Source: Mobula hypostoma
Taxonomy: Eukaryota
Reading direction: 5' to 3'
DNA: 64,000 nucleotides
NCBI RefSeq assembly: GCF_963921235.1
Contig: NC_086108.1
Location: 77,068,001-77,132,000, forward strand
A program made the translations under genes and the position numbers. Below the pieces are notes generated by a model. That model ran no database searches and had not been told where the DNA came from. It saw only the letters and a program-made list of their open reading frames with translations. Below are positions 743 to 51,289 of the stretch, piece by piece. Positions within the stretch are counted from its first letter, which is position 1, and each line of letters begins with the position of its first letter.

Positions 743-1173
743 GTAAATTGCCAAGATCTGAGAACCACTCAATCCAACCAGTTGTATATCTCTTTGCATC
801 TTCTGTAGGTGATTTTCCAACCTGGCTTTATAAGATCAATGCACATAAGTCGCAATTTCCCATGTTATCTATCATGAATGGAAGTTCTAAATAGCAAATA
901 TCCTTGAAATAATACTTGTAGCCGCCTTTGAGTAGCAGTCATCCTGCCTAAAATGACGCATTTATTCTGTCCTTTCAGATAGTCTTTCATGCTGGTTAAT
1001 ATCTAAACTCCATACTTTCCCAACCATGTAAGCTCCTTTAGTTTATATAAAGCACTTGTTTGGCACCCTGCACAGATTCATTTTGATGTACTAAACAGTG
1101 CCTTGAAAAAGTAACACACATCAAAGTTGCTGGTGGACGCAGCAGGCCAGGCAGCATCTCTAGGAAGAGGTAC

Positions 1174-1209
1174 AGTCGACGTTTCAGGCCGAGACCCTTC
1201 GTCAGGACT
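1174..1209 (-). ncRNA. Minimal type-I hammerhead ribozyme motif in the PLE terminal region
   Basis: Minus strand reads AGUC-CUGACGA-AGG GUCUCGG CCU-GAAA-CG-UC-GACU: stem I AGUC/GACU, intact core, stem II, palindromic stem III (ACGU), GUC cleavage triplet. Confidence 0.85.
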
Positions 1210-1507
1210 AACTGAAGGAAAAGTTAGTAAGAGATTTGAAAGTGGGAGGGGGAGGGGGAAGGGGAGATCCAAAATGATAGGAGAAGACAGGAGGGGGAGG
1301 GATGGAGCCAAGAGCTGGACAGGTGATTGACAAAGGGGATATGAGAGGATCATGGGACAGGAGGTCCAGGGAGAAAGACAAAGGGGGGGAACCCAGAGGA
1401 TGGGCAAGGGGTATAGTCAGAGGGACAGAAGGAGAAAAAGGAGAGTGAGAGAAAGAATGTGTGTATATAAATAAATAACGGATAGGGTATGAGGGGGAGG
1501 TGGGGCG

Positions 1508-2863
1508 TTAGCGGAAGTTAGAGAAGTCAGTGTTCATGCCATCAGGTTGGAAGCTACCCAGACGGAATATAAGGTGTTGTTCCTCCAACCTGAGTGTGGC
1601 TTCATCTTTACAGTAGAGGAGGCCGTGGATAGACATACCAGAATGGGAATGGGATGTGGAATTAAAATGTGTGGCCACTGGGAGATCCTGCTTTCTCTGG
1701 TGGACAGAGCATAGGTGTTCAGCAAAGCGGTCTTCCAGTCTGCGTCGGGTCTCGCCAATATATAGAAGGCCACATCGGGAGCACCAGACGCAGTATATCA
1801 CCCCAGCCGACTCAGGTGAAGTGTCGCCTCACCTGGAAGGACTGTCTGGGGACCTGAATGGTGGCAAGGGAGAAAGTGTAAGGGCATGCGTAGCACTTGT
1901 TCCGCTTACAAGGATAAGTGCCAGGAGGGAGATCAGTGGGGAGGGATGGGGGGGACGAATGGACAAGGGAGTTGCATAGGGAGCGATCCTTGCGGAAAGC
2001 AGAGTGGGGGGGGGAGGGAAAGATGTGCTTAGTGGTGGGATCCCGTTGGAGGTGGCAGAAGTTACGGAGAATATTATGTTGGACCCGGAGGCTGGTGGGG
2101 TGGTAGGTGAGGACCAGGGGAACCCTATTCCTAGTGGGGTGGCGGGAGGATGGAGTGAGAGCAGATGTGCGTGAAATGGGGGAGATGCGTTTGAGAGCAG
2201 AGTTGATGGTGGAGGAAGGGAAGCCCCTTTCTTTAAAAAAGGAGGACATCTCCCTCATCCTGGAATGAAAAGCCTCATCCTGAGAGCAGATGCGGCGAAG
2301 AAGGAGGAATTGCGAGAAGGGGATGGCATTTTTGCAAGAGGCAGGGTGGGAGGAGGAATAGTCCAGATAGCTGTGAGAGTCGGTAGGCTTATAGTAGACA
2401 TCAGTGAATAACCTGTCTCCAGAGATAGAGACGGAAAGATCTAGAAAGGGGAGGGAGGTGTCGGAAATGGACCAGATAAACTTGAGGGCAGGGTGAAAGT
2501 TGGAGGCAAAGTTAATAAAGTCAACGAGCTCAGCATGTGTGCAGGAAGCAGCGCCAATGCAGTCGTCGATGTAGCGAAGGAGAAGTGAGGGACAGATACC
2601 AGAATAGGTACGGAACATAGATTATTCCACAAAGCCAACAAAAAGGCAGGCATAGCTAGGACCCATACGGGTGCCCATAGCTACACCTTTAGTTTGGAGG
2701 AAGTGGGAGGAGCCAAAGGAGAAATTATTAAGAGTAAGGACTAATTCCGCTAGACGGAGCAGAGTGGTGGTAGAGGGGAACTGATTAGATCTGGAATCCA
2801 AAAAGAAGCGTAGAGCTTTGAGACCTTCCTGATGGGGGATGGAAGTATATCGGGACTGGACAT
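1508..2863 (-). pseudogene. PLE reverse transcriptase + GIY-YIG endonuclease, disrupted
   Basis: ORFs 2622-2957 (part), 1812-2618 and 1508-1801 join into one polyprotein. One in-frame TAA at 2622-2624 and one frameshift near 1812. Confidence 0.92.
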
Positions 2864-3212
2864 CCTTGAAAAGTACTTGGCTCCCACAACCATTTTCCCA
2901 TTGTCTAAATTTAAAATATATTAAAGTATGATTATTTTGAGCTAATCTACAAAACATTTGATTTGGTATGATGCATAAAGGGAAATTCCAAAGCTTGTCA
3001 ACAATCTTCTAAGAATTAAAAGCCAAAATTCTGAGGCTGAAAAAGTATTAATTCGCTTTGCTATACTAATTTTCCTCAGGTACAATATTGTATATTACCT
3101 TACCAACTCAACCAATTTGTTGAATTAGAAAACAGGAGGATGACCTGAGCAAGTACCCCCTTCGCTCTGTAAGGTCCAATAGTATGGTAGATTTTGAACA
3201 GATCAAACCAAA

Positions 3213-12102: not shown

Positions 12103-12402
12103 TTGTGTGACCCTACCAGGGATAGGGTTCCTCTTGTCCTCACCTACCACCCTACCAGCCTCCATGTCCAGCAGATAGTTCTCCGCAACTTCTGCCATCT
12201 CAAATGGGATCCCACCACCAAGCACATCTTTCCCTCACCCACTTTCTGTTCCCTACATGACTCCTTTTCCCTTTCATCCCTCACCACTGATCTCCCTCCT
12301 GGCATTTATCCTTCCAAGTGGAACAAGTGCTACACCTGTCCGGACGCCTCATCCCTCACTACCATTCAGGGCCCCAAACAGTCCTTCCAGGTGAGGTGAC
12401 AC
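12103..12402 (+). mobile_element. PLE internal fragment
   Basis: PTRDRVPLVLTYHPTSLHVQQIVLRNFCHLKWDPTTKHIFPS closely matches the PLE ORF 1812-2618. Confidence 0.9.
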
Positions 12403-12460
12403 CTGGAAAGACTGTAAGCAATTTTGGACCTGGGGAATGAAAGGGTTAAAGTATTTGGAG

Positions 12461-12685
12461 CAATATGTACAAACTGCTGGAGTAACTCAAAGGCCAGGGA
12501 GCATCTATGGTAAAGGGTAAACAGTCGACGTTTTGGGCTGAGACCCTTCACCAGTCCCGATGAAGGGTCTCAGCTTGAAATGGCTACTGTTTACTCTTTT
12601 ACATAGATGCTCCCTGATCTGCTGAGTTTCTCAGCATTTTGTGTGTATTGTTTTGACTACCAGCATCTGCAGTTCTTTTGTTTGT
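12461..12685. mobile_element. Fold-back (inverted pair) of PLE terminal units with two decayed HHR motifs
   Basis: 12461-12551 is the approximate reverse complement of ~12558-12650 (gagacccttca / tgaagggtctc; gggagcatctatg / catagatgctccc). Confidence 0.85.
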
Positions 12686-13140
12686 AACGTATGAGAGCGT
12701 TTGATGGCTCTGAAACTGTACTTTCAGGAGTTTAGAAGACTGAGGAGGAATCTCATCCCATAGAAACCTACTAAATATTGATAGGTCTAGATAGAGTGGA
12801 TGTGAAGAGGTGCTTCCTGTAGTGAGGGAATCTAGAACCAGACACACAGACTCAGAGTACAAAGGCTTCCCTTTAGAACAGAGATGAAGAGGAGGGAATT
12901 TCTTTAGCCAAAGGATGGTGAATCTATTGAATTCATTGCCACAGATGGCTGTGGAGGCCGAGTCATTGGATATATTTAAAACAGAGTTGATAGCTCTTGA
13001 ACAGTAAGGTCATCAAAAGTTACAGAGAAAAGGCAGGAGGATGGGGTTGAGAGGGATAATAAATCAGCCATGGTGAAATCGTGAATAAGATTCAATGAGC
13101 CAAATTGCCTAATTCTGTTTCAGTACCTTATGGTCTTATG
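12686..13140 (+). mobile_element. CR1 LINE 3' fragment with tail
   Basis: tatgagagcgtttgatggctctg... ending in ccttatggtcttatg. Same family as 14346-15963. Confidence 0.85.
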
Positions 13141-13789
13141 TTACGGTGAACTGAAGGATCATAAGGCATCCACTAATTCCACAGCAGTTGCCAGACTAGC
13201 TAACTCTCAGTGGCGATATTCACTCCATGAAGATGGCATTCCTCTTCTGCATTGCTGTTCCAGAGGAGTTCACAGCTACATTCTTGTTCTTTAAACTGAA
13301 GTGTCTCACTCAGTGCAGCAATATTGACGTCTGGGTTCTTAAGTAATGAATACAGAGCAGCATACCAGTCTGTTGGTATTGTCCGAGGGAGTCCTCACAT
13401 TCCAGGTCTCAAATTTCATAATGTGCAGAGGAAGTTGCCCATGCATGCTTTCTTTATATGTGGGGTAAACATTGCACATGAGCTAACACACAGTGTTCAC
13501 AGATCAAGGTTTTGACCCAATAGTAAGGAAGCCCATGATGGCAGGAGACCAGGCATGGTTATTACTCATACATAAAGGTGGGATCACATCCCAGGCACCT
13601 TCCCTATGTATGCACTCACTTCTTCATATTCGGCTTTGGGCACAGGAACTTTTAACCTCTTGCCTCCATTCCTGTTTCTCATCTGGTTACCAATTCCTGA
13701 CCCCAGAACATACCAGGTCCCTATGCTAGTCTTTATGTACAGCTGCACACTTGGTTTATGTTTCCCATCTCCCCATCTCTGATACTAGC

Positions 13790-14345
13790 TGCATCTAAAA
13801 CTTATGGTGTTCTGGACACCAATAATGCCTTCTATGTTTCTGAGACATGGACTACTTACAGAAGTACCTCAATGCATTGGTGGCGGGGGGGGGGGGGGGC
13901 GGGGAGTCACAAATTCTGTCTCCACAAATGCTCCAAGGAGGGATAAGCAAAACCATTCTTGACCCCCTCCCAGATCAACATCCACAGAATTGAGGCCCTA
14001 AGCACTCTCAGTCAGCTATGTTGGGCAGGTCACATTATTCAAATGCCTAACATCAACCTCCCAAAACAGACACTCTATTAAAAGGTGAGATTGCTAAGTG
14101 GATAGATAAAAAGGTTCAAGAATGTGTTAAATCTTACTTGAAAATGTGCAACATTTCCAATAACCCCAAAGGACCACTGGCCTATGTTCACTCAAGTGGA
14201 GAAGGGACAATCGGGCTTTGAGAAAGATTATTGAGGACTTCAAGACCATGTATTGGGAACAAACTGATGCTTTGCATTGGTGGCAGAAGGAATAAATAAC
14301 CTCACAAATTGTCCACCCTCGTCCCACTAGCTTCATCTGTGGAAA
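13790..14345 (+). mobile_element. RTE-clade LINE 3' fragment, decayed
   Basis: YVSETWTTYR and ctatgttgggcaggtcacattattcaaatgcctaacatcaacctcccaaaacag (LCWAGHIIQMPNINLPKQ), matching the RTE motif LRWAGHV.RM...RLPKQ. Confidence 0.65.
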
Positions 14346-15963
14346 ATAAGACCTTAAGATATTGGAGCAGAATTAAGCCATTTGGCCCATTGAGTCTGCT
14401 CTGCCATTTCATCATGGCTGATTCAATTTTCTTCTCAGCCCCAATTTCATGCCTTCTTCCTGTATCCCTTCATGCCCTGACCAATCAAGAATCTATCAAC
14501 TTCTGCCTAAAATATACATAAAGACTTGGCCCCCACAGTTGCCTGTAGCAAAGAATTCCACAGGTTCACCACTGACTGGCTAAAGAAATTCCTTCTCATC
14601 TTCATTCGAAATAGATGCCCCTCTATTCTGAGACTGCGCCTCTGGTATTAGACTCTCCCACTTCTCCACATCCACTCTATTGAGGCCTTTCACCATTTGA
14701 TAGGTTTCAATGAGGTCACCCCTCATTCATCTGAATTCCAGTGAATATAGGCCTAGAGCCATCAAACGCTCTTCATATGACAGGCTATTCAATCCTGGAA
14801 TAATTTTTGTGAACCTCTTTTGAACCCTCTCCAGTTTCAGCACATCCTTTCGAAGATAAGGGGCCAAAATCTGCTCAGAATACTTCAAGTGAGGCCTCAC
14901 CAGTGCTTTATAAAGTCTCAACTTTACATCCTTGCTTTTACATATATTCCAGCTCTTTTGAAATGAATGCTAACATTTCATTTGCCTTCCTCACCATAGA
15001 CTCAACCTGCAAATTAACCTTTAGAGTATCCTGCCACAAGGACTCCCAAGTCCCTTTGCACCTTATTTTTCTTTGCATTTTCGCTCCATTTGGAAAATAG
15101 TCAACCCTCTCATTTCTTTTACCAAAGTGTATGTCTATACACTTCCCAACACTGTATTCCATCTGCTGCTTCTTTGCCCATTCTTCTAATCTGTCTAAGT
15201 TCTTCCGTAGCCTCTCTACTTTTTCAAAAATACCTGCCCCTCCACCTATCTTCATATCATCTGCAAACTTTTCAACAAAGCCATCAATTCCATCATCAAA
15301 ATCATTGACATATAACATAAAAAGAATCAATCCCAACACAGACCCCTGTAGAACAGCACAAGTCATCAGCAGCCAACCAGAAAAGGCTCCCTTTATTCCC
15401 ACTCTTTGCCTCCTGCCAATCAACTACATAAGCCCTGATGAAGAGTCTGAACCCGAAATGTCGACTGCGGTCTTTTCCATAGATGCTGCCTGGCCTGATG
15501 AGTTCCTCCAGCATTTTGTGTGTGTGGTGCTTGGCCTATAGTTTCCTTTCTTCTGCCTTTCTCACTTCTTGAAGAGTGGAGTGACATTTGCAATTTTCCA
15601 ATCTTCCAGAACCGTTCCTGAATCTAGTGATTCATGAAAGATCATTACTAATGCCTCTGCATCTCTTCAGTCACCCTGCTTCAGAACTCTGGGGTGTACA
15701 CCATCTGGTCCAAGTAACTTCAGGCCTTTCCGTTTCCCAAGAACCTTTTCTCTAGTTATGGCAACTTCACACACTTAATGACCCCTGACACCTGGAACTT
15801 CTACCATTCTGCTAGTGTCTTCCACCATGAAGACTGATGCAATATACTTATTCAGTTTGTCTGCCATTTCATTGTTCCCCACTACTCCCTCTCCAGCATT
15901 GTTTTCCTGTGGTCCGATATCCAATCTCGCCTCTCTTTTACACTTTATGTAACCAAAGAAACT
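14346..15963 (-). mobile_element. CR1 LINE fragment (RT and C-terminus), internally deleted
   Basis: ORFs with QGSVLG, KFADD and LYKALVRPHLKY. 3' tail at 14346-14420. Confidence 0.92.
15431..15532 (+). mobile_element. PLE terminal unit beginning at an HHR motif, inside CR1
   Basis: agcc-ctgatga-agagtctgaaccc-gaaa-tg-tc-gact followed by the PLE tail catagatgctgcctggcctg...cagcattttgtgtgtgt. Confidence 0.8.
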
Positions 15964-16359
15964 TGTAGATACATAAAGTCTAAGCGAGAGGTAAAAGTGG
16001 ATGTCAAACCATTGGAAAATGATACTGGAGAGGTAGTAATGTGTGACAATGAAATGTGCTACCTTTGTTCGTGGGTGGCAAGGATAAGCCGATTACAGTT
16101 AAGACTCACTTACAGGGATCATATCACATAAGGTCTGCTGAGTCTAACATCAAAGGCAGGAAAGATATTGGAAAAAATTGTGAAAGACAGGGATATTTAA
16201 TTTACCTTTGTTAGAAGGAGTGTCCAAAAGGCAGTACTTACATGGACTTGAGTAAGGAATTTGATGTCCCACAGAGGAGACTGGTCCAAGAAGTTAAAGC
16301 TGATAGCATCCAAAAATGACAAATTAGTTCTAAGATTGGCTTATTAATAGGAGGCACAG

Positions 16360-25192: not shown

Positions 25193-27429
25193 AAATCACT
25201 CTTAGATCATCATCGTGAATACAACTCCCACATTCATAGCTCTTTAAATACAACAGATGCACCAAAATACTTTGCTAACCTAAGAGAGAATACGGTAATA
25301 GTATTGAGACTTGATAGGATTTACCATGCTTGTACAGAATTTCCATTAATGACTAAATCAGCTGCAGTCAAGACTGAAATTTTTGAATGAAATTGTTTTG
25401 GGAACTCGATCAGAGAAATAAAAATAAGTAAACATTGGCAAGAGATGTCCCAGAAACAAGTTCAGAAAGCAACCAAACAGGCTAATTGGAGTTAGTAAGA
25501 TTAATAATTGTTAAAAAGGCTACTAGCAATGGGATGCAGGGCTGGAGGATACGCAATGTGGAACTGAATTTTGTTAGGAAGGATAGATGAGAGTTTTCTG
25601 TAAGTGGTCATGAAGGCAGAAAGCAGAAGGACTCTGTAGACTAAGATTAATAAAGCCATAGACTTCTGAAGGAGATCATACTAGAAATAACTTCTTTGAT
25701 ATGGTCTTGATAGTGGGGTATTATTGGGAGATGTTAACTGAAGGTAGATTGATTGAGAAAAATCAAGTTTATCCAATAAGTAATCCAAAAGGGTTATGTG
25801 ACTGTGATACTGCTCTTTCCATTGAACCTGAGCATACATATACTTGTGCACATGACAACAAACTCAATTTTGACTTTTGACTTTGATATAGAAGTGTTAG
25901 TTAGGCCCTAAATTAGCAATTTCTTACCTCAGTACTTTCTCTTAATTTATAGTTGTACTGCTATAAAAATAGGGCAAAATCAAATATAAAGCATTGTCTT
26001 CTTACTTTTTATGTGTTTATCCATATTAAATTGGAACCATAACAATCAAGAAGTGTTTACCTATTTCCCGGATAAATACTTGCATAGATGCCTACATTTT
26101 GCAGTTGTTGAGCATGAAAAAGGCAGAACTACTAATTCTTAAAGTAAATGGTAAAAATAAATTGTAAGGATGATAACCACTGTTTTATAGGAGCAAGATG
26201 TTGCTTGTGAATATATTTATGGAAGAATTTCAGCAAAAGTTGTGATCATAGAACAAACTTCGTATTTACTTTCCAAGCACAAAAGGGAGGAATTTACTTA
26301 TTGAATATTTAACTAAGTGGATTTCACAATTATGCAGTTAATAAACTGAAGAATTTGATTGAAAGTACAAATGAATATTTAGATAAAATTGCCTTCTTTA
26401 TAGTTGTATGCTGGAGAAGCATAGTGGCTGGTATTGTTCACCAGGAGTAGCTGTTCAAGCAGTAGTAAAAGGGCTGAGGGACAAATAAAGGGTGGTATGA
26501 CTGTCGGTAAAACATGGGGAGTTGGGATTAGGAAACAAGCTGAAGAGAAAAAAATTAATGCGTGCAGCAGTATATAATTGGAGCTCCCAGAAAGAAAGTA
26601 AACATGATTATATAGGGATTTGAACAGAGAACAATGATACTGTGAATGACCTATTAGAATAAAAGTGTTTGGCAAAAATGGGTGTTATGATGCAGTGGGA
26701 TTTTATTCTGGAAAGGACGTGGAATATGATAACCTAGACAAAGCCATCATTTTCAGAGAATGGGATAAAAGTTTCGTTATGATTAAGTGATGGATTTTTC
26801 TTGTGGAAGTGACAGGAAATATTTTTGAGGAAAATAACATTCTTGGTTTCTGCTATTGATGTATATGAATGTACAGTAATTGAACAGTACTGAAAGTATT
26901 GACTAGGAATGCAAAGAATGAAAAGGCATTGCATAGTTTATTCTTGTAAGTATTTTTAATTATGAGTAGAGTTTATTTGGATTAAAAAACAATATTGGTC
27001 ACAGAAACACCAGTGAGAGGGGAGTTTAATCTCTGTGAAAGGAGGATGCTGAATGGTCTGAGGCCATTTTGATTTATGCCATTTGAGCCTGCAGCAACAA
27101 TGTTGGTTTTTCCTAAGTTATTCAACTTGCTATGTATGTGTGAGGCTTGTTATTTTAACATATTTAATGGGTTAATGAAATTGACAAAAATAATTAGTTT
27201 TGTAACCTGTCTGCTTTTATCTTCCTGTAAAATCAATGGTAACTTACATTGGACAAATATAGAACTAGTTTTTCACTTGACGTCTATCCTGATGAGTTAG
27301 GTTAGCACTGTTTTATTCTACTTTAAAGCCTTGTACAAGTTATAGCTTTGACAAGTTGAACAGTATACTGTGCCAAAGGTTTTTCTCTCTTTATCTCCGT
27401 CCATGCCATTTTATTGAGGTGCCAACTGT

Positions 27430-27498
27430 CCTGCTGAGTAAATGCAGGATTTCTTGTTTTTAGTTCAGATTTACAGCATCTGCAGTATTTTGCTTTTA
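27430..27498 (+). mobile_element. PLE tail fragment
   Basis: cctgctgagt...cagatttacagcatctgcagtattttgct resembles 12615-12685. Confidence 0.5.
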
Positions 27499-43764: not shown

Positions 43765-44563
43765 TAATGTAAAATACACATAATGCTGGAGGAACTCGAT
43801 GGAAATGAATAAACAGTCGACGTTTTGGACCGAGACCCTTCATCAGGACTGGTAGAAAGGGATGAGAAGTCAGATAAGAGGGTGGGGGGAAGGGGAAGAA
43901 GAAGTACAAGGTAGTAGGTGATAAGTGAAATCAGGAGAGGGTAAGGGGTGAAGTAAAGAGCTAGGAAGTTGATTGGTGAAAGAGATACAGGGCTGGTGAA
44001 GGGGGAATCTGATAGGAGAGGACAGAAGGCCATGGAAGAAAGGGAAGGGGGAGGAGCTCCAGAGGGAGGTGATGGGCAGGTAGGGAGTTAAGGTTGGAGA
44101 GGGAAATGGGAATGGGGAATGGTGAAAGGGTGGAGGGGGGCTTCAATTACCGGAAGTTCAAGAAATCGATGTTCATGACATCAGGTTGGAGGCTACCCAG
44201 ACGGAATATAAGGTGTTGATCCTGCAACCTGAGTGTGGCCTCATTGCAGCAGTAGAGGAGGCCATGGACTGACATATTGGAATGGGAATGGGAAGTAGAA
44301 TTGAAGTGGGTGGTCAGTGGGAGATTCTGCTTTCTCCGGTGGACGAAACGTAAGTGCTCATCAAAGCAGTCTGCCAATTTGCTTTGGGTCTCACCAGTAT
44401 ACAGGAGGCCACACCAGGAGCACCAAATACAGTAGATGACCCCAACAGGCTTGTAGGTGAAGTGTCGCCTCCCATGGACAGACTGTTTGGGGCCCTGAAG
44501 CGTAGTGAGGGAGGAGGTGTAGGAACAGGTGTGCCATTTGCTCTGCTTGCAAGGGTAAGTGCC
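43765..44563 (-). mobile_element. PLE 3' fragment (GIY-YIG + terminal region with mutated HHR)
   Basis: ORF 44147-44377 (HFNSTSHSHSNMSVHGLLYC...LIFRLGSLQPD). HHR at 43814-43851 has GAAA changed to AAAA. Confidence 0.9.
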
Positions 44564-44578
44564 AACAGAAGTGGCGTA

Positions 44579-44835
44579 CAGTACTGTGCAAAAATCTTAG
44601 GCACATATACAGTCTATAACTGGGCCCCGAAGACTTTTGCACAGTACTGCTTTTGTCAATGTGGAACAGAGAGGGAGTTTGTAAATCTGGCGGGAGCAAA
44701 GGACGTTGGGAATGGCGAGACTGGAGCATCACGGGAGGGGTGAACTGGTGCAATACATAAAATTACTGGAGTAGAGTGCAAAAGTCTGAGACACCCTAGC
44801 TATGTATATGCTCCTAAGACTTTTGCACAGCATTG
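44579..44835. mobile_element. Tc1/mariner-type MITE with four TIR copies
   Basis: TA-cagtactgtgcaaaaatctt...aagacttttgcacagtactg (44579-44649), spacer, then gtgcaaaagtct...aagacttttgcacagcattg-TA (44769-44835). Confidence 0.75.
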
Positions 44836-44837
44836 TA

Positions 44838-46197: not shown

Positions 46198-47173
46198 TGG
46201 AGGTTCCCTAAAGCATATTTTAGCATAAATTAGCATATTTCATAAATGATCCACAGTGTGGCCAGGATGTACTGGTGGTGAAGCAATTGGTTGTTTAGCT
46301 GGTGGTGCAAAAACATTCAGGAGGATAATTTCTTCTCGGATACATTTCAAACTTTAATGTTTTTGGAACTGTAGTCAGGAAAGTATAGAATATTCTTGTG
46401 ACACTTCGTAGATCGTAATGAACTTAGGGACTTCAGAGAAGAGCCACAGTAAGGAAGTGGATGAAATTAACCAAATCAGTCAAAGTAGAGAAAAAGTTAT
46501 GGATGAAATTAATTATAATATTCTTCATCTGAATGGGTATGAAGTACTCTGTTATATATTGAGATTTCTATGTAAAAGATCAAGGTATGTAAGATTAAGT
46601 TTTCTGTAAAGTTTACATTACCCAAACAGCTAATGTGCTTTTGGGAGCAAGTGTATGAAGGCACCTTGTTGACATTAATGATGCTGGAAGTAAACTCTAT
46701 GTATTTGTTTATGATTTCCAGGGTTTAGGCTTAAATAAGCTTCTGAGTTCTGAACTACTGGATTGTCCAACTTGTAATGATGTTTTTAAAGATACTGCTC
46801 CTTCCAGTTCCTGCTGCCATTGTGTTTTGACTCATATTTTGCTATGTGATTAAAGGCTAGGATTTAGTACTCCCAGTGCAGAGCTTCATGTGTTGGAAAT
46901 TTGAGGGCAGAGGTAATGTGCACAATTCACCATCTGCAGAATTTTAAATCCACTTAAGTTAATGTATAAATTCTAAACATGCCAACTTTAACATGAAGCT
47001 TCTCACCAGCAGTACTAAACTGTAAAAGAGATGATAAAAGGGTAAATTCTCAGAAGCTCTGCACATTGCATTTTGCCTAGTTGGCAATGGCCCGATAACA
47101 AGGAATTTCACTCATATCTCACTTCTTGCACTTATCTTAGCTTCCAAAGGCCATTTAGGTCTCTGATATTAGG

Positions 47174-47416
47174 TACCACAAACACGAGAAAATTTCTAGA
47201 TGCTGGAAAACCAAAGCAACACACACAAAACGCTGGAGGAACTCAGCAGGCCAGGCAGCATCTACCGTACAGCATAAACAGTTGGTATTTTGGGCCGAGA
47301 CCCTTCATCAGGACTGGTAAAGTCCTGATTCCAGTCCTGATGAAGTTGACTGTTTACTCTTTTCCATAGATGCTACCTGGCCTGCTGAGTTCCTCCAGTA
47401 GTTTGTGTATGTTGCG
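47174..47416. mobile_element. Fold-back PLE terminal-unit insertion with TSD
   Basis: Inverted arms 47216-47317 and 47331-47415. TSD ctgatattagg at 47163-47173 and 47417-47427. Confidence 0.88.
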
Positions 47417-48714
47417 CTGATATTAGGCGCACTGCGGGCATACGAAACTTTATGTAGCTACAATATTCTCATGACTGCTTCACTGAGACCAGGTGAAGCT
47501 TGGATGAAATCATATTGATTGCTAAAATAACACCGGTGCATTACTGAGAAGTTTGAAGTTTGAAATTTAACTTCAAGCTTGTTGATTTGAAAACTGGTTG
47601 AAAAGCTTTTCGAAAACTCTAAGCTTCCTTCCTGCAGTCAGCTTTCATAGGATTTCTAATTTCTAATCCTAAGACTTCTAGGATTGATGCCTAACTTTTG
47701 TGTATTTCTAAATTGTACTTCTCAGGTCACTTGACTTCAATTCATACTTTCATTGCAAAATTTGTTTGCAGGCAGCATTGACTTGCAGCCATTGGGCAAC
47801 CTTGTCACAATCCTGTATGTTGTGGGAATGGGAATCCCACAAAGTACTCCAGCTGTGTTACACAACATGAAGAAATAAAAGCAATTCACAAGTATGCCCT
47901 GTTGTTGAATGCAAATACATTTTTTGGATACATCTGCTCTTGAGAAATACCATTGAAACTGAATGCATAGATCATATTAATCCTTCTGTGTGATGCAGAG
48001 GACGGATAATTCTGATTCTATCAGGTTTTGGAGATCTCTATGGAGGATGCTCCCTAATTGATTAAAGTGGGACAAAATGGTGCGGATATTGTCAGGATGT
48101 GCAGCCTTGGATTAAGATTACCATGCAAATTTCACTCTAGTTTTTTTTTCTGCTTGCTTTAAGTTGAAGACACACAAGCTATACCAGCTGCATAAGATAG
48201 GAGGTAATACTCCCACTGTGATGTCCTCTGTTCCTCATGACTGGAAAACTATCTTGTCATATGAAGGCCCAAAATCTTAGCAGCAGTAAATTGGAAGCGA
48301 CAGAATAGTTGGCTATTAGAGACATGGACCAATGGGTCCAGGATATCTCCAACTGCACGTTGATGCTCAGTAGAAGGTATAGGTGTAGGCTGACCATTGC
48401 AGCAGTAAATGAGGAATTCAGATTAATACCAACCAGAATTACCTTAGAGATGAGTGTTAGCCATAAGACACTCAGGATGGATTCACAATGACTATCTAGT
48501 GAGGGAAGAAGTGACTATCACAGATTCTGCTGTATCTGGGTTGGTTGTAGATAATAAATAAAATATTGCACATTGGTGACCTTGAGCTTCTTCTCACAGG
48601 AATACATAAAAAAGGATATTATGTGTACCACTGTTCGGATAAGGTATCATGTGCACACTGGGGGCTGGTTGAAGGAATAATCTCCTGTATACATGAGAAA
48701 TATTTTTACCTCTT

Positions 48715-49911: not shown

Positions 49912-50591
49912 TGAAATTTTAAGTCCATCAGTTTAAACAGAGCACAAGGGAAATTTATGAACGATGTGAATTCTGTCACACTGTTTATGACAGAATCCTG
50001 TTTCGTGAATGATCTTTCAGTGAAAACTTCCACTGAAGAATGTGAAAACATCACCCATTTCCATTTTTAGTGGGCATGAGAAACATTGATATGAGTTGTT
50101 CAAGGTAATACATTTGATATGCCGACTAACCTTCAGCAGGCCCAGCATGTCCACACAGTTGTTAACTGTGTATATGAAGTTACTACAGAGTCTGACAAAG
50201 TAACTACTTCTGAGCCCTTCTTCTTGGGGTGAAGAGAGATTCTGAGATTGATTCAGAAATTATTCAGGAATTGGTTCCAAAACATTAAACTAATAAGCTC
50301 TGTGAAAATAGCAGGGCTGCTGTGAGGACTTAATCAGGGATCTATATTGTGAATAACTATTGACAACCAGACCTCACTCTGTTGTGTAATGGTCACAAAA
50401 GACAGATGTCACTATTTTTGGATTCTTGTACAAGTGATGATAACTCACTTTATAAACCGATTTCTTTCATTAAACAGTAACAGTCTGGAATGAGAGAACT
50501 GTTCTGAAGATATCAGTGAGTGATCATTTCAGGTCACATTCCAACCTTTCACCGACAATTTCTATTAGGTCACATAGTACCTTTTTTGCTC

Positions 50592-51208
50592 AAACAACAG
50601 GAATTCTGCAGATGCTGGAAATTCAAGCAACACACATCAAAGTTGCTGGTGAACGCAGCAGGCCAGGCAGCATCTCTAGGAAGAGGTGCAGTCGATGTTT
50701 CAGGCCGAGACCCTTCGTCAGGACTAACTAAAGGAAGAGTGAATAAGGGATTTGAAAGTTGGAGGGGGAGGGGGAGATCCAAAATGATAGGAGAAGACAG
50801 GAGGGGGAGGGATGGAGCCAAGAGCTGGACAGGTGATTGGCAAAAGGGATACGAGAGGATCATGGGACAGGAGGTCCGGGAAGAAAGACGGGGGGGGGGG
50901 GAACCAGAGGATGGGCAAGGGGTATATTCAGAGGGACAGAGGGAGAAAAAGGAGAGTGAGCGAAAGAATGTGTGTATAAAAATAAGTAACAGATGGGGTA
51001 CGAGGGGGAGGTGGGGCATTAGCGGAAGTTAGAGAAGTCGATGTTCATGCCATCGGGTTGGAGGCCTACCCAGACAGAATATAAGGTGTTGTTCCTCCAA
51101 CCTGAGTGTGGCTTCATCTTTACAGTAGAGGAGGCCGTGGATAGACATGTCAGAATGGGAATGGGATGTGGAATTAAAATGTGTGGCCACTGGAAGGTCC
51201 TGCTTCTT
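50592..51208 (-). mobile_element. PLE 3' fragment, nearly identical to 1114-1695
   Basis: Colinear high identity with the first PLE. HHR at 50690-50725 differs at stem III (gaaa-ca-tc). Confidence 0.93.
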
Positions 51209-51289
51209 TTTTGCTGGAGATTTTTCTTTTTGTGGAGGACTCTTTGCAAACTACTGGAACTACATGTATAAGACTATAACAGGCATAAA

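Follow-up and report, generated by a model that had tools for sequence, protein, structure and literature searches.

The window analysed here, a stretch of 64,000 nucleotides (64 kb) from the genome of Mobula hypostoma, carries at 47163-47427 two terminal units of a Penelope-like element (PLE) which stand head-to-head, each with a hammerhead motif, within one short target-site duplication (TSD). This raises the question of whether such a structure is the product of a single insertion event and, if so, whether it was put together as part of the insertion of a PLE or represents a hairpin family that replicates in its own right. The available evidence indicates that the insert is very probably one old insertion of an endonuclease-bearing PLE in a known head-to-head form, which consists of two terminal units only, was built as such at insertion and is now inert.

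Architecture of the insert

The insert proper spans 243 bp (47174-47416) and lies between two exact 11-bp copies of ctgatattagg on the plus strand (left copy 47163-47173 and right copy 47417-47427, identical at 11/11 positions). When random pairs of positions 243 bp apart were drawn, a shared word of at least 11 letters was obtained in 5 of 20,000, and the chance of an 11-bp TSD surviving intact at the level of decay seen in the arms is about 0.14. The exact duplication encloses both arms and neither of them alone, which bears out the claim of a preliminary description of this DNA that the ~240-bp segment is a single insertion event. Its content, likewise as first described, is a pair of inverted PLE terminal units, which are recognized by the family alignment and are identical to each other at 71/85 positions in register, i.e. 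they differ at 14/85 sites (16% divergence); the profile was built from the window's own PLE units, and the match of the arms to this profile is hence by construction. The left arm (47216-47322, minus strand) reads outward to the left, beginning at a 5' end some 11 nt ahead of the ribozyme core, and the right arm (47329-47416, plus strand) reads outward to the right and has no tail. The tail is confined to the left arm (47174-47215, minus strand); 39 nt of it (47177-47215) match the PLE family and align with the long 3' ends of the units at 12551-12684, 49105 and 50591, while the other 3 nt adjoin the TSD. The arms are thus unequal, the left one exceeding the right by these ~39 family bases.

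The outer inverted arms occupy 47207-47282 and 47349-47424, and the DNA fold of the insert strand is far better than expected (z = -12.2, with 0/200 shuffles as good). The inner arms (47303-47317 and 47331-47345) form a perfect 15-bp repeat with 13 nt between them, placing the symmetry centre just upstream of the hammerhead core, where the preliminary description had located it. The 13-nt spacer is not random, as 47318-47329 is a 10/12 near-tandem copy of 47330-47341. The left arm can be followed as native upstream sequence to 47322, after which come 7 nt that complete a 9-bp hairpin and then the right arm. This junction scar (47307-47329, plus strand) has a 5-nt loop and a predicted DNA fold of -8.1 kcal/mol. 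Two further observations concern the left flank, namely a 29-nt inverted repeat (46863-46891 and 46991-47019, 79%, 99 nt apart) and a possible exon at about 46300-46590, terminated by a splice-donor-like word near 46585; given such an exon, the insert would lie in an intron.

Of the hammerhead motifs, the right one had already been recognized as broken, and the lack of stem II and GAAA in this arm is explained by a 17-nt deletion after 47345 that removed helix II together with GAAA. The breakage of the motif in the left arm had been overlooked: alignment and the minimal-core test define there a decayed minimal type-I hammerhead (47279-47317, minus strand), which keeps CUGAUGA (47311-47305) and helix II, while GAAA has become AAAA (47291-47288) and the GUC cleavage triplet ACC (47286-47284). 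Its RNA fold is no better than those of shuffles (z 0.51). Judged by their sequence, therefore, both hammerhead motifs of the insert are dead, and not the right one alone. The two broken cores start 26 bp apart, and the turn of the insert lies at the 5' edge of the hammerhead; the cleavage site is crossed by both arms and is not where the turn occurs. Rfam gave 0 matches at gathering thresholds in the 64-kb window, and the assignment as ribozymes rests on the minimal-core scan and on the available text of PMC4209133 (Cervera and De la Pena 2014). In common with the metazoan PLE hammerheads of that report, which are of the minimal type I, the motifs have a minimal core, a palindromic helix III and a bulged base before helix II. 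The same text describes opposite-strand pairs of hammerheads ~100-700 bp apart in Schistosoma, from which the insert differs in the 26-bp spacing and in the breakage of both cores.

The PLE family and the age of the insertion

The window holds ten units of this family in 8 insertions, 2 of which are head-to-head pairs (these counts leave out a very decayed, tail-bearing candidate at 27410-27490, E 0.003). The longest member (1111-2880, minus strand) combines a decayed RT part, a GIY-YIG endonuclease, a pyrimidine-rich stretch and a complete minimal hammerhead core, and this predicted layout is that of an endonuclease-bearing PLE. RT-like motifs are visible in its translation, and Pfam identified the GIY-YIG domain with an E value of 1.7e-5 (25.5 bits against a cut-off of 22.6); the other 2/3 protein pieces were without a Pfam match, a PDB search with the RT-linker piece gave 0 matches, and PF26215 clusters are indicated by Atlas features at 0.95-0.96. 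No part of the insert itself is coding, and its link to RT and GIY-YIG runs through this member, which is 76% identical to the left arm of the insert over 105 nt. Further PLE features found are the hammerhead in the terminal unit, the inverted 5'-truncated copy, the one-sided tail (39 nt, PLE tails measuring 30-40 bp) and a short TSD of variable length, i.e. 11 bp at the insert, 8 bp (7/8) at the second palindrome at 12447 and 10 bp at unit 50591; for units 15431, 22096, 43771 and 49105 no TSD of at least 8 bp was found. Among the ten units, a predicted complete minimal core with helix I occurs only in unit 1205 (within 1111-2880).

Several other members of the family and neighboring features deserve mention. 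An unpaired copy at 50581-51215 (minus strand) is 92% identical to the 1111 copy and has the 10-bp TSD, and the unpaired unit at 15431-15531 starts at the ribozyme 5' edge. A PLE endonuclease fragment without a 3' end (12110-12402, plus strand) immediately precedes the LINE piece in which the second palindrome is found. A 261-bp element with 35-bp terminal inverted repeats (44577-44837, 86%) abuts the 5' end of the PLE copy 43771-44564, the length of which is for this reason a minimum. In the long units 1205, 43846, 49236 and 50721 a run of pyrimidines closes with AG right at helix I (4/4); this resembles a splice acceptor, yet this AG also belongs to helix I; in Penelope of Drosophila virilis the end of an intron maps to the same AG/helix I point, according to the available part of PMC4209133. 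A 48-bp tandem unit at 651-742 passes a loose hammerhead scan twice with 3 helix-I pairs only, probably by chance.

The ends of the units fall into distinct groups. The outer (3') ends of 9 aligned units form two classes about 35-40 nt apart, a short end in 5/9 (1108, 12455, 15431, 43771 and 47416) and a long end in 4/9 (12684, 47177, 49105 and 50591). Each of the two palindromes has one short and one long outer end, and 3 units without an inverted partner finish at the short position as well, indicating that this end can arise without fold-back. The inner (5') ends are bimodal, with 4/8 insertions starting close to the ribozyme core (-11 to about +18) and the other four much further upstream (-484, -673, at least -718 and about -1675). 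If truncation is taken to be exponential with a mean of 200-1500 nt, this clustering has P = 0.018 to 1e-5, values to be read with the small n and the post hoc choice of the interval in mind. The stop of cDNAs at the ribozyme 5' edge may reflect a transcription start, a pause or a splice acceptor.

The second head-to-head palindrome (12447-12692) lies inside a LINE, carries its tail on the right arm only and is flanked by an 8-bp TSD (12447-12454 and 12685-12692) read by eye at 7/8 (one mismatch). LINE paralogues near 14777 and 55863 cross the 12447 site with one copy of the duplicated stretch (compared by eye at 68-71% identity). This palindrome is without a spacer, its arms overlapping on 3 nt (12552-12554) in a small dyad at the ribozyme start. 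Read base by base, the centres thus differ in 2/2 palindromes of the window, and the idea that copies might share identical junctions did not hold for these two, which turn at different points. Both arms of the 12447 palindrome share a variant (column 80) seen in 0/6 other units holding that column, which points to one source for these arms. Two inverted structures nearby are LINE-like and do not belong to the PLE family, the inverted repeat at 15865-16056 (87-nt arms, 18 nt apart), which was rejected as a candidate, and the long arms at 12694-14772, which lie 1.2-2 kb apart.

For the age of the insertion, contigs from four of the 23 runs listed were compared, the best-matching run and three relatives (3 of 10 other organisms listed); none of the matching runs was recorded as RNA; the best-matching run, in which both outer junctions are covered with 0 differences, is possibly the source sample and for this reason is not independent support. 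The left junction is kept in 3/3 relatives, in each of which a contig that covers the left flank extends for 51-57 nt into the left arm, with 59/730, 21/704 and 33/725 differences (flank divergence of 3-8%), and the right junction is also covered in relative X11, though absent in X19 among the pieces listed. Being common to three relatives, the insertion is older than the splits from them, which fits the 16% divergence of the arms. The preliminary description had pointed to the orthologous site in related species as a place to look for an empty allele: the site was indeed found in relatives, in filled form, and no empty site occurs among the listed pieces of the three. An X20 piece starting at 47422 with 68 unplaced letters was considered as an empty allele and rejected, as the depth over 47061-47162 is fully explained by another record and the letters are hence not left flank. 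The family as a whole is very abundant, with 82,419-110,246 contigs per run matching a 1.5-kb stretch with the insert in the four runs. Pattern scans found 0 family copies in viral contigs and 0 in metagenome contigs, and 5 pattern matches in bacterial genomes, having no likeness beyond 18-23 nt, were rejected as chance.

Possible routes to the head-to-head structure

The available text of the work on Pen2a and its derivatives in Adineta vaga describes an inverted pLTR, a palindrome at the junction, a 31-bp tail on one inverted unit and an 8-10-bp TSD, and self-priming at such palindromes was proposed there in 2013 (PMC3846280, Arkhipova et al. 2013); in the available part of PMC8557442 the tail on one inverted repeat is optional, and the origin of PLE tandem and inverted structures is called undefined. 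The insert resembles the Pen2a insertions in its head-to-head terminal units, junction palindrome, one-sided tail and TSD; unlike them it is without a body and consists of two 87-149-nt units only, has a TSD of 11 bp and resides in a vertebrate host at very high copy number. In the case of Poseidon PAc from Anolis carolinensis, the accessible text reports a protein that cleaves and extends both strands with no strand difference, two internal RNA start sites with a spacing equal to the tail, the use of uncleaved RNA and a predicted dimer (PMC11167929, Frangieh et al. 2024). The insert resembles this system in two features: the hammerhead is followed closely by two classes of 3' end whose distance equals one tail, and the template was apparently not cleaved at the ribozyme.

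Against this background we tentatively favor, at slightly less than an even chance, dual priming at both target nicks followed by end-joining over a fold-back of the cDNA. In such a process the element protein would nick both target strands 11 bp apart, and each 3' end would prime reverse transcription inside the element RNA, the far start site giving the tailed arm and the near start site the untailed one. Both cDNAs would come to a stop shortly after copying the hammerhead motif, close to or at the RNA 5' end or a pause, and their ends would be joined through 1-3-nt matches, leaving a short templated repeat as a scar; gap filling would then make the TSD. The anatomy, family, age, two 3' classes and 5' clustering come from the present analysis, nicking and extension of the strands and the two start sites come from in-vitro work on the lizard PLE only, and the joining step is one that we infer throughout. 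Dual priming is consistent with the published PLE pattern of an inverted pLTR, a 9-10-bp TSD and a 31-bp one-sided tail (available text of PMC3846280 and PMC8557442), with the finding that the Anolis protein cuts both strands and extends them using one and the same pair of start sites (PMC11167929, in part), with the use of the short end by 3 unpaired units, with the 5' ends of 4/8 insertions at the ribozyme edge, with the difference between the junctions of the two palindromes and with the presence of the insert in three relatives. Moreover, both palindromes cross the cleavage site, as expected of an uncleaved RNA template.

Other observations count against dual priming. The tailed arm reaches further upstream in 2/2 palindromes (-11 vs -8 and -6 vs 0), as fold-back requires, an outcome that dual priming would give 1 time in 4; the 9-bp junction hairpin resembles a snap-back; the edges of the TSD are not at ATT, the preferred cut of the Anolis protein, a point in which the insert is also unlike Poseidon PAc; and two palindromes only have been read base by base. 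No sign of two different templates was seen in either palindrome. In the left arm a cluster of five substitutions in 9 nt (47265-47273, minus strand) is private to the locus as far as seen: it is missing from the other 8 aligned units, and the loose-end contig consensus in all four runs has the family form. An origin of the arms from different subfamilies found no support, this cluster not being a family variant, and column 62, the one remaining arm difference, which is polymorphic in the family, is too little to call.

Fold-back of the cDNA, which the preliminary description offered as its first option and which is related to the self-priming idea of PMC3846280, is a close rival of somewhat lower probability. 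Here one nick and the far start site would suffice, the 3' end of the cDNA snapping back at the ribozyme 5' edge and copying the first arm; at the insert this would have to happen twice, a 7-nt false start being followed by the full copy, with a cut or stop at the tail boundary and joining to the other target end. The 9-bp hairpin with its 5-nt loop and a 2-nt priming match at 47307-47329 agrees with such a course, and native upstream sequence, snap-back copy and right-arm start together can account for 13/13 spacer bases. The loop lies on the tailed arm in 2/2 palindromes, the private variant is common to both 12447 arms, and the one-sided tail has been ascribed to endonuclease resolution (PMC8557442, available text). 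On the other hand, fold-back requires that the cDNA be stopped or cut site-specifically right at the short end, an end that the 3 unpaired units also use, and the cDNA end before snap-back is predicted to be unfolded (0.0 kcal/mol). The scar equally fits a 12-nt slippage copy, and the in-vitro data, as far as the text of PMC11167929 was available, indicate that both ends are start sites. The turn itself may be set by the ribozyme fold, by short local matches or by the RNA 5' end.

It is distinctly improbable that the insert arose by later collapse, in which an originally longer insertion, composed of inverted unit, direct unit, body and direct unit, was stripped of its body through recombination of the direct units with each other or through a central deletion, the TSD being retained. 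The canonical full PLE structure does have that layout (PMC3846280, in its available part), and the 17-nt deletion in the right arm implies that deletions occur in the hairpin. Against this, the unpaired units 15431 and 22096 also start at the ribozyme edge, implying that short products are made as such. Moreover, direct units of 100-140 bp make poor recombination substrates.

Less probable again is the proposal of the preliminary description that the insert belongs to a MITE-like hairpin family which replicates and is mobilised in trans by PLE proteins. A symmetric unit would offer a start site on either strand, and a joined form of 47248 to 47355 is present in all four runs at 5-16x single-copy depth among the joints listed, along with other head-to-head joins that are likewise present in all four. 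However, the centres differ in 2/2 palindromes, the TSD lengths are 8, 10 and 11, the outer ends are asymmetric, and the depth across the centre at 47327 is 288/259/226/194 in the four runs, as against 423,721/265,551/377,220/247,766 over 47265-47315 and 6-13 in unique flanks, all among the contigs counted and with depth not equal to copy number. The centre thus reaches 0.06-0.10% of ribozyme depth in the four species, a proportion to be read with the tendency of contigs to break in hairpins, and the proposed family with this junction was not borne out. At the 47248-47355 join far more of the centre has been deleted, the letters inside it vary from run to run, and 20-28 nt make up the short side; this could be a small hairpin family with another centre, which is a lead only. 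Supposed opposite-strand joints from 47287/8 to 47345-53 were rejected, being ordinary single units split over the two arms.

Two independent adjacent insertions or an assembly artefact are hardly credible: the family is very abundant and no listed piece of the locus spans the centre (47228-47378), but the exact 11-bp duplication brackets the two arms together, the layout recurs at 12447, the arms differ at 14/85 sites, unlike a read fold-back artefact, and the outer junctions are found in contigs of the best-matching run as well as in relative X11.

Relation to other elements and biological meaning

Comparison with other short or inverted elements points in the same direction. As a short, non-coding, hammerhead-bearing and PLE-related sequence the insert recalls the non-LTR retrozymes (available text of PMC7229834 and bioRxiv 10.64898/2026.07.22.740005), which, in contrast, form head-to-tail tandems with complete ribozymes; it is single, its units are head-to-head and neither core is complete, and an assignment to the retrozymes was rejected on these grounds. 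A MITE was likewise rejected: 42 nt at the left end lie beyond the inverted repeat, so that the TIRs are not flush, there is no single structure or fixed TSD length (in the window, centres and TSD lengths differ in 2/2 palindromes), and the termini of the insert trace to a GIY-YIG retroelement. In the twin-priming inversions of L1, the inverted part copies a different upstream segment of the RNA, and the insertion has a poly(A) tail. Should both target nicks have primed cDNA whose ends were joined by short matches within one TSD, the insert would be like these inversions in mechanism; it is unlike them in that both arms copy the same segment and poly(A) is absent, and an L1-type inversion was accordingly rejected. 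Short palindromes of a similar kind are abundant in the skate and turtle genomes, and a search of the literature, mostly without subscription journals and Repbase, found no description of such stumps in cartilaginous fishes. In its form the insert is an ordinary PLE product of a kind already described and not a new kind of mobile element.

A further and unlikely idea assigns the hammerhead the role of a clasp in place of that of scissors. Two RNAs might pair via their palindromic helix III, a protein dimer might prime one of them at each nick, and the cDNAs might run off at a transcription start a little upstream of the ribozyme, in which case the stumps would be a fossil record of a PLE integration intermediate and some of their centres might have been re-amplified as hairpin families.

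As a single locus the insert matters little, being an old inert repeat and one data point. Two-armed stumps as a class, however, display within 250 bp the two start sites, the two stop points and the join, and they are present in bulk in the Mobula hypostoma genome. If the idea of the clasp were true, these stumps would record, in very large numbers, the still undefined integration intermediate of PLEs, and centres such as the 47248-47355 join might have re-amplified as hairpin families.
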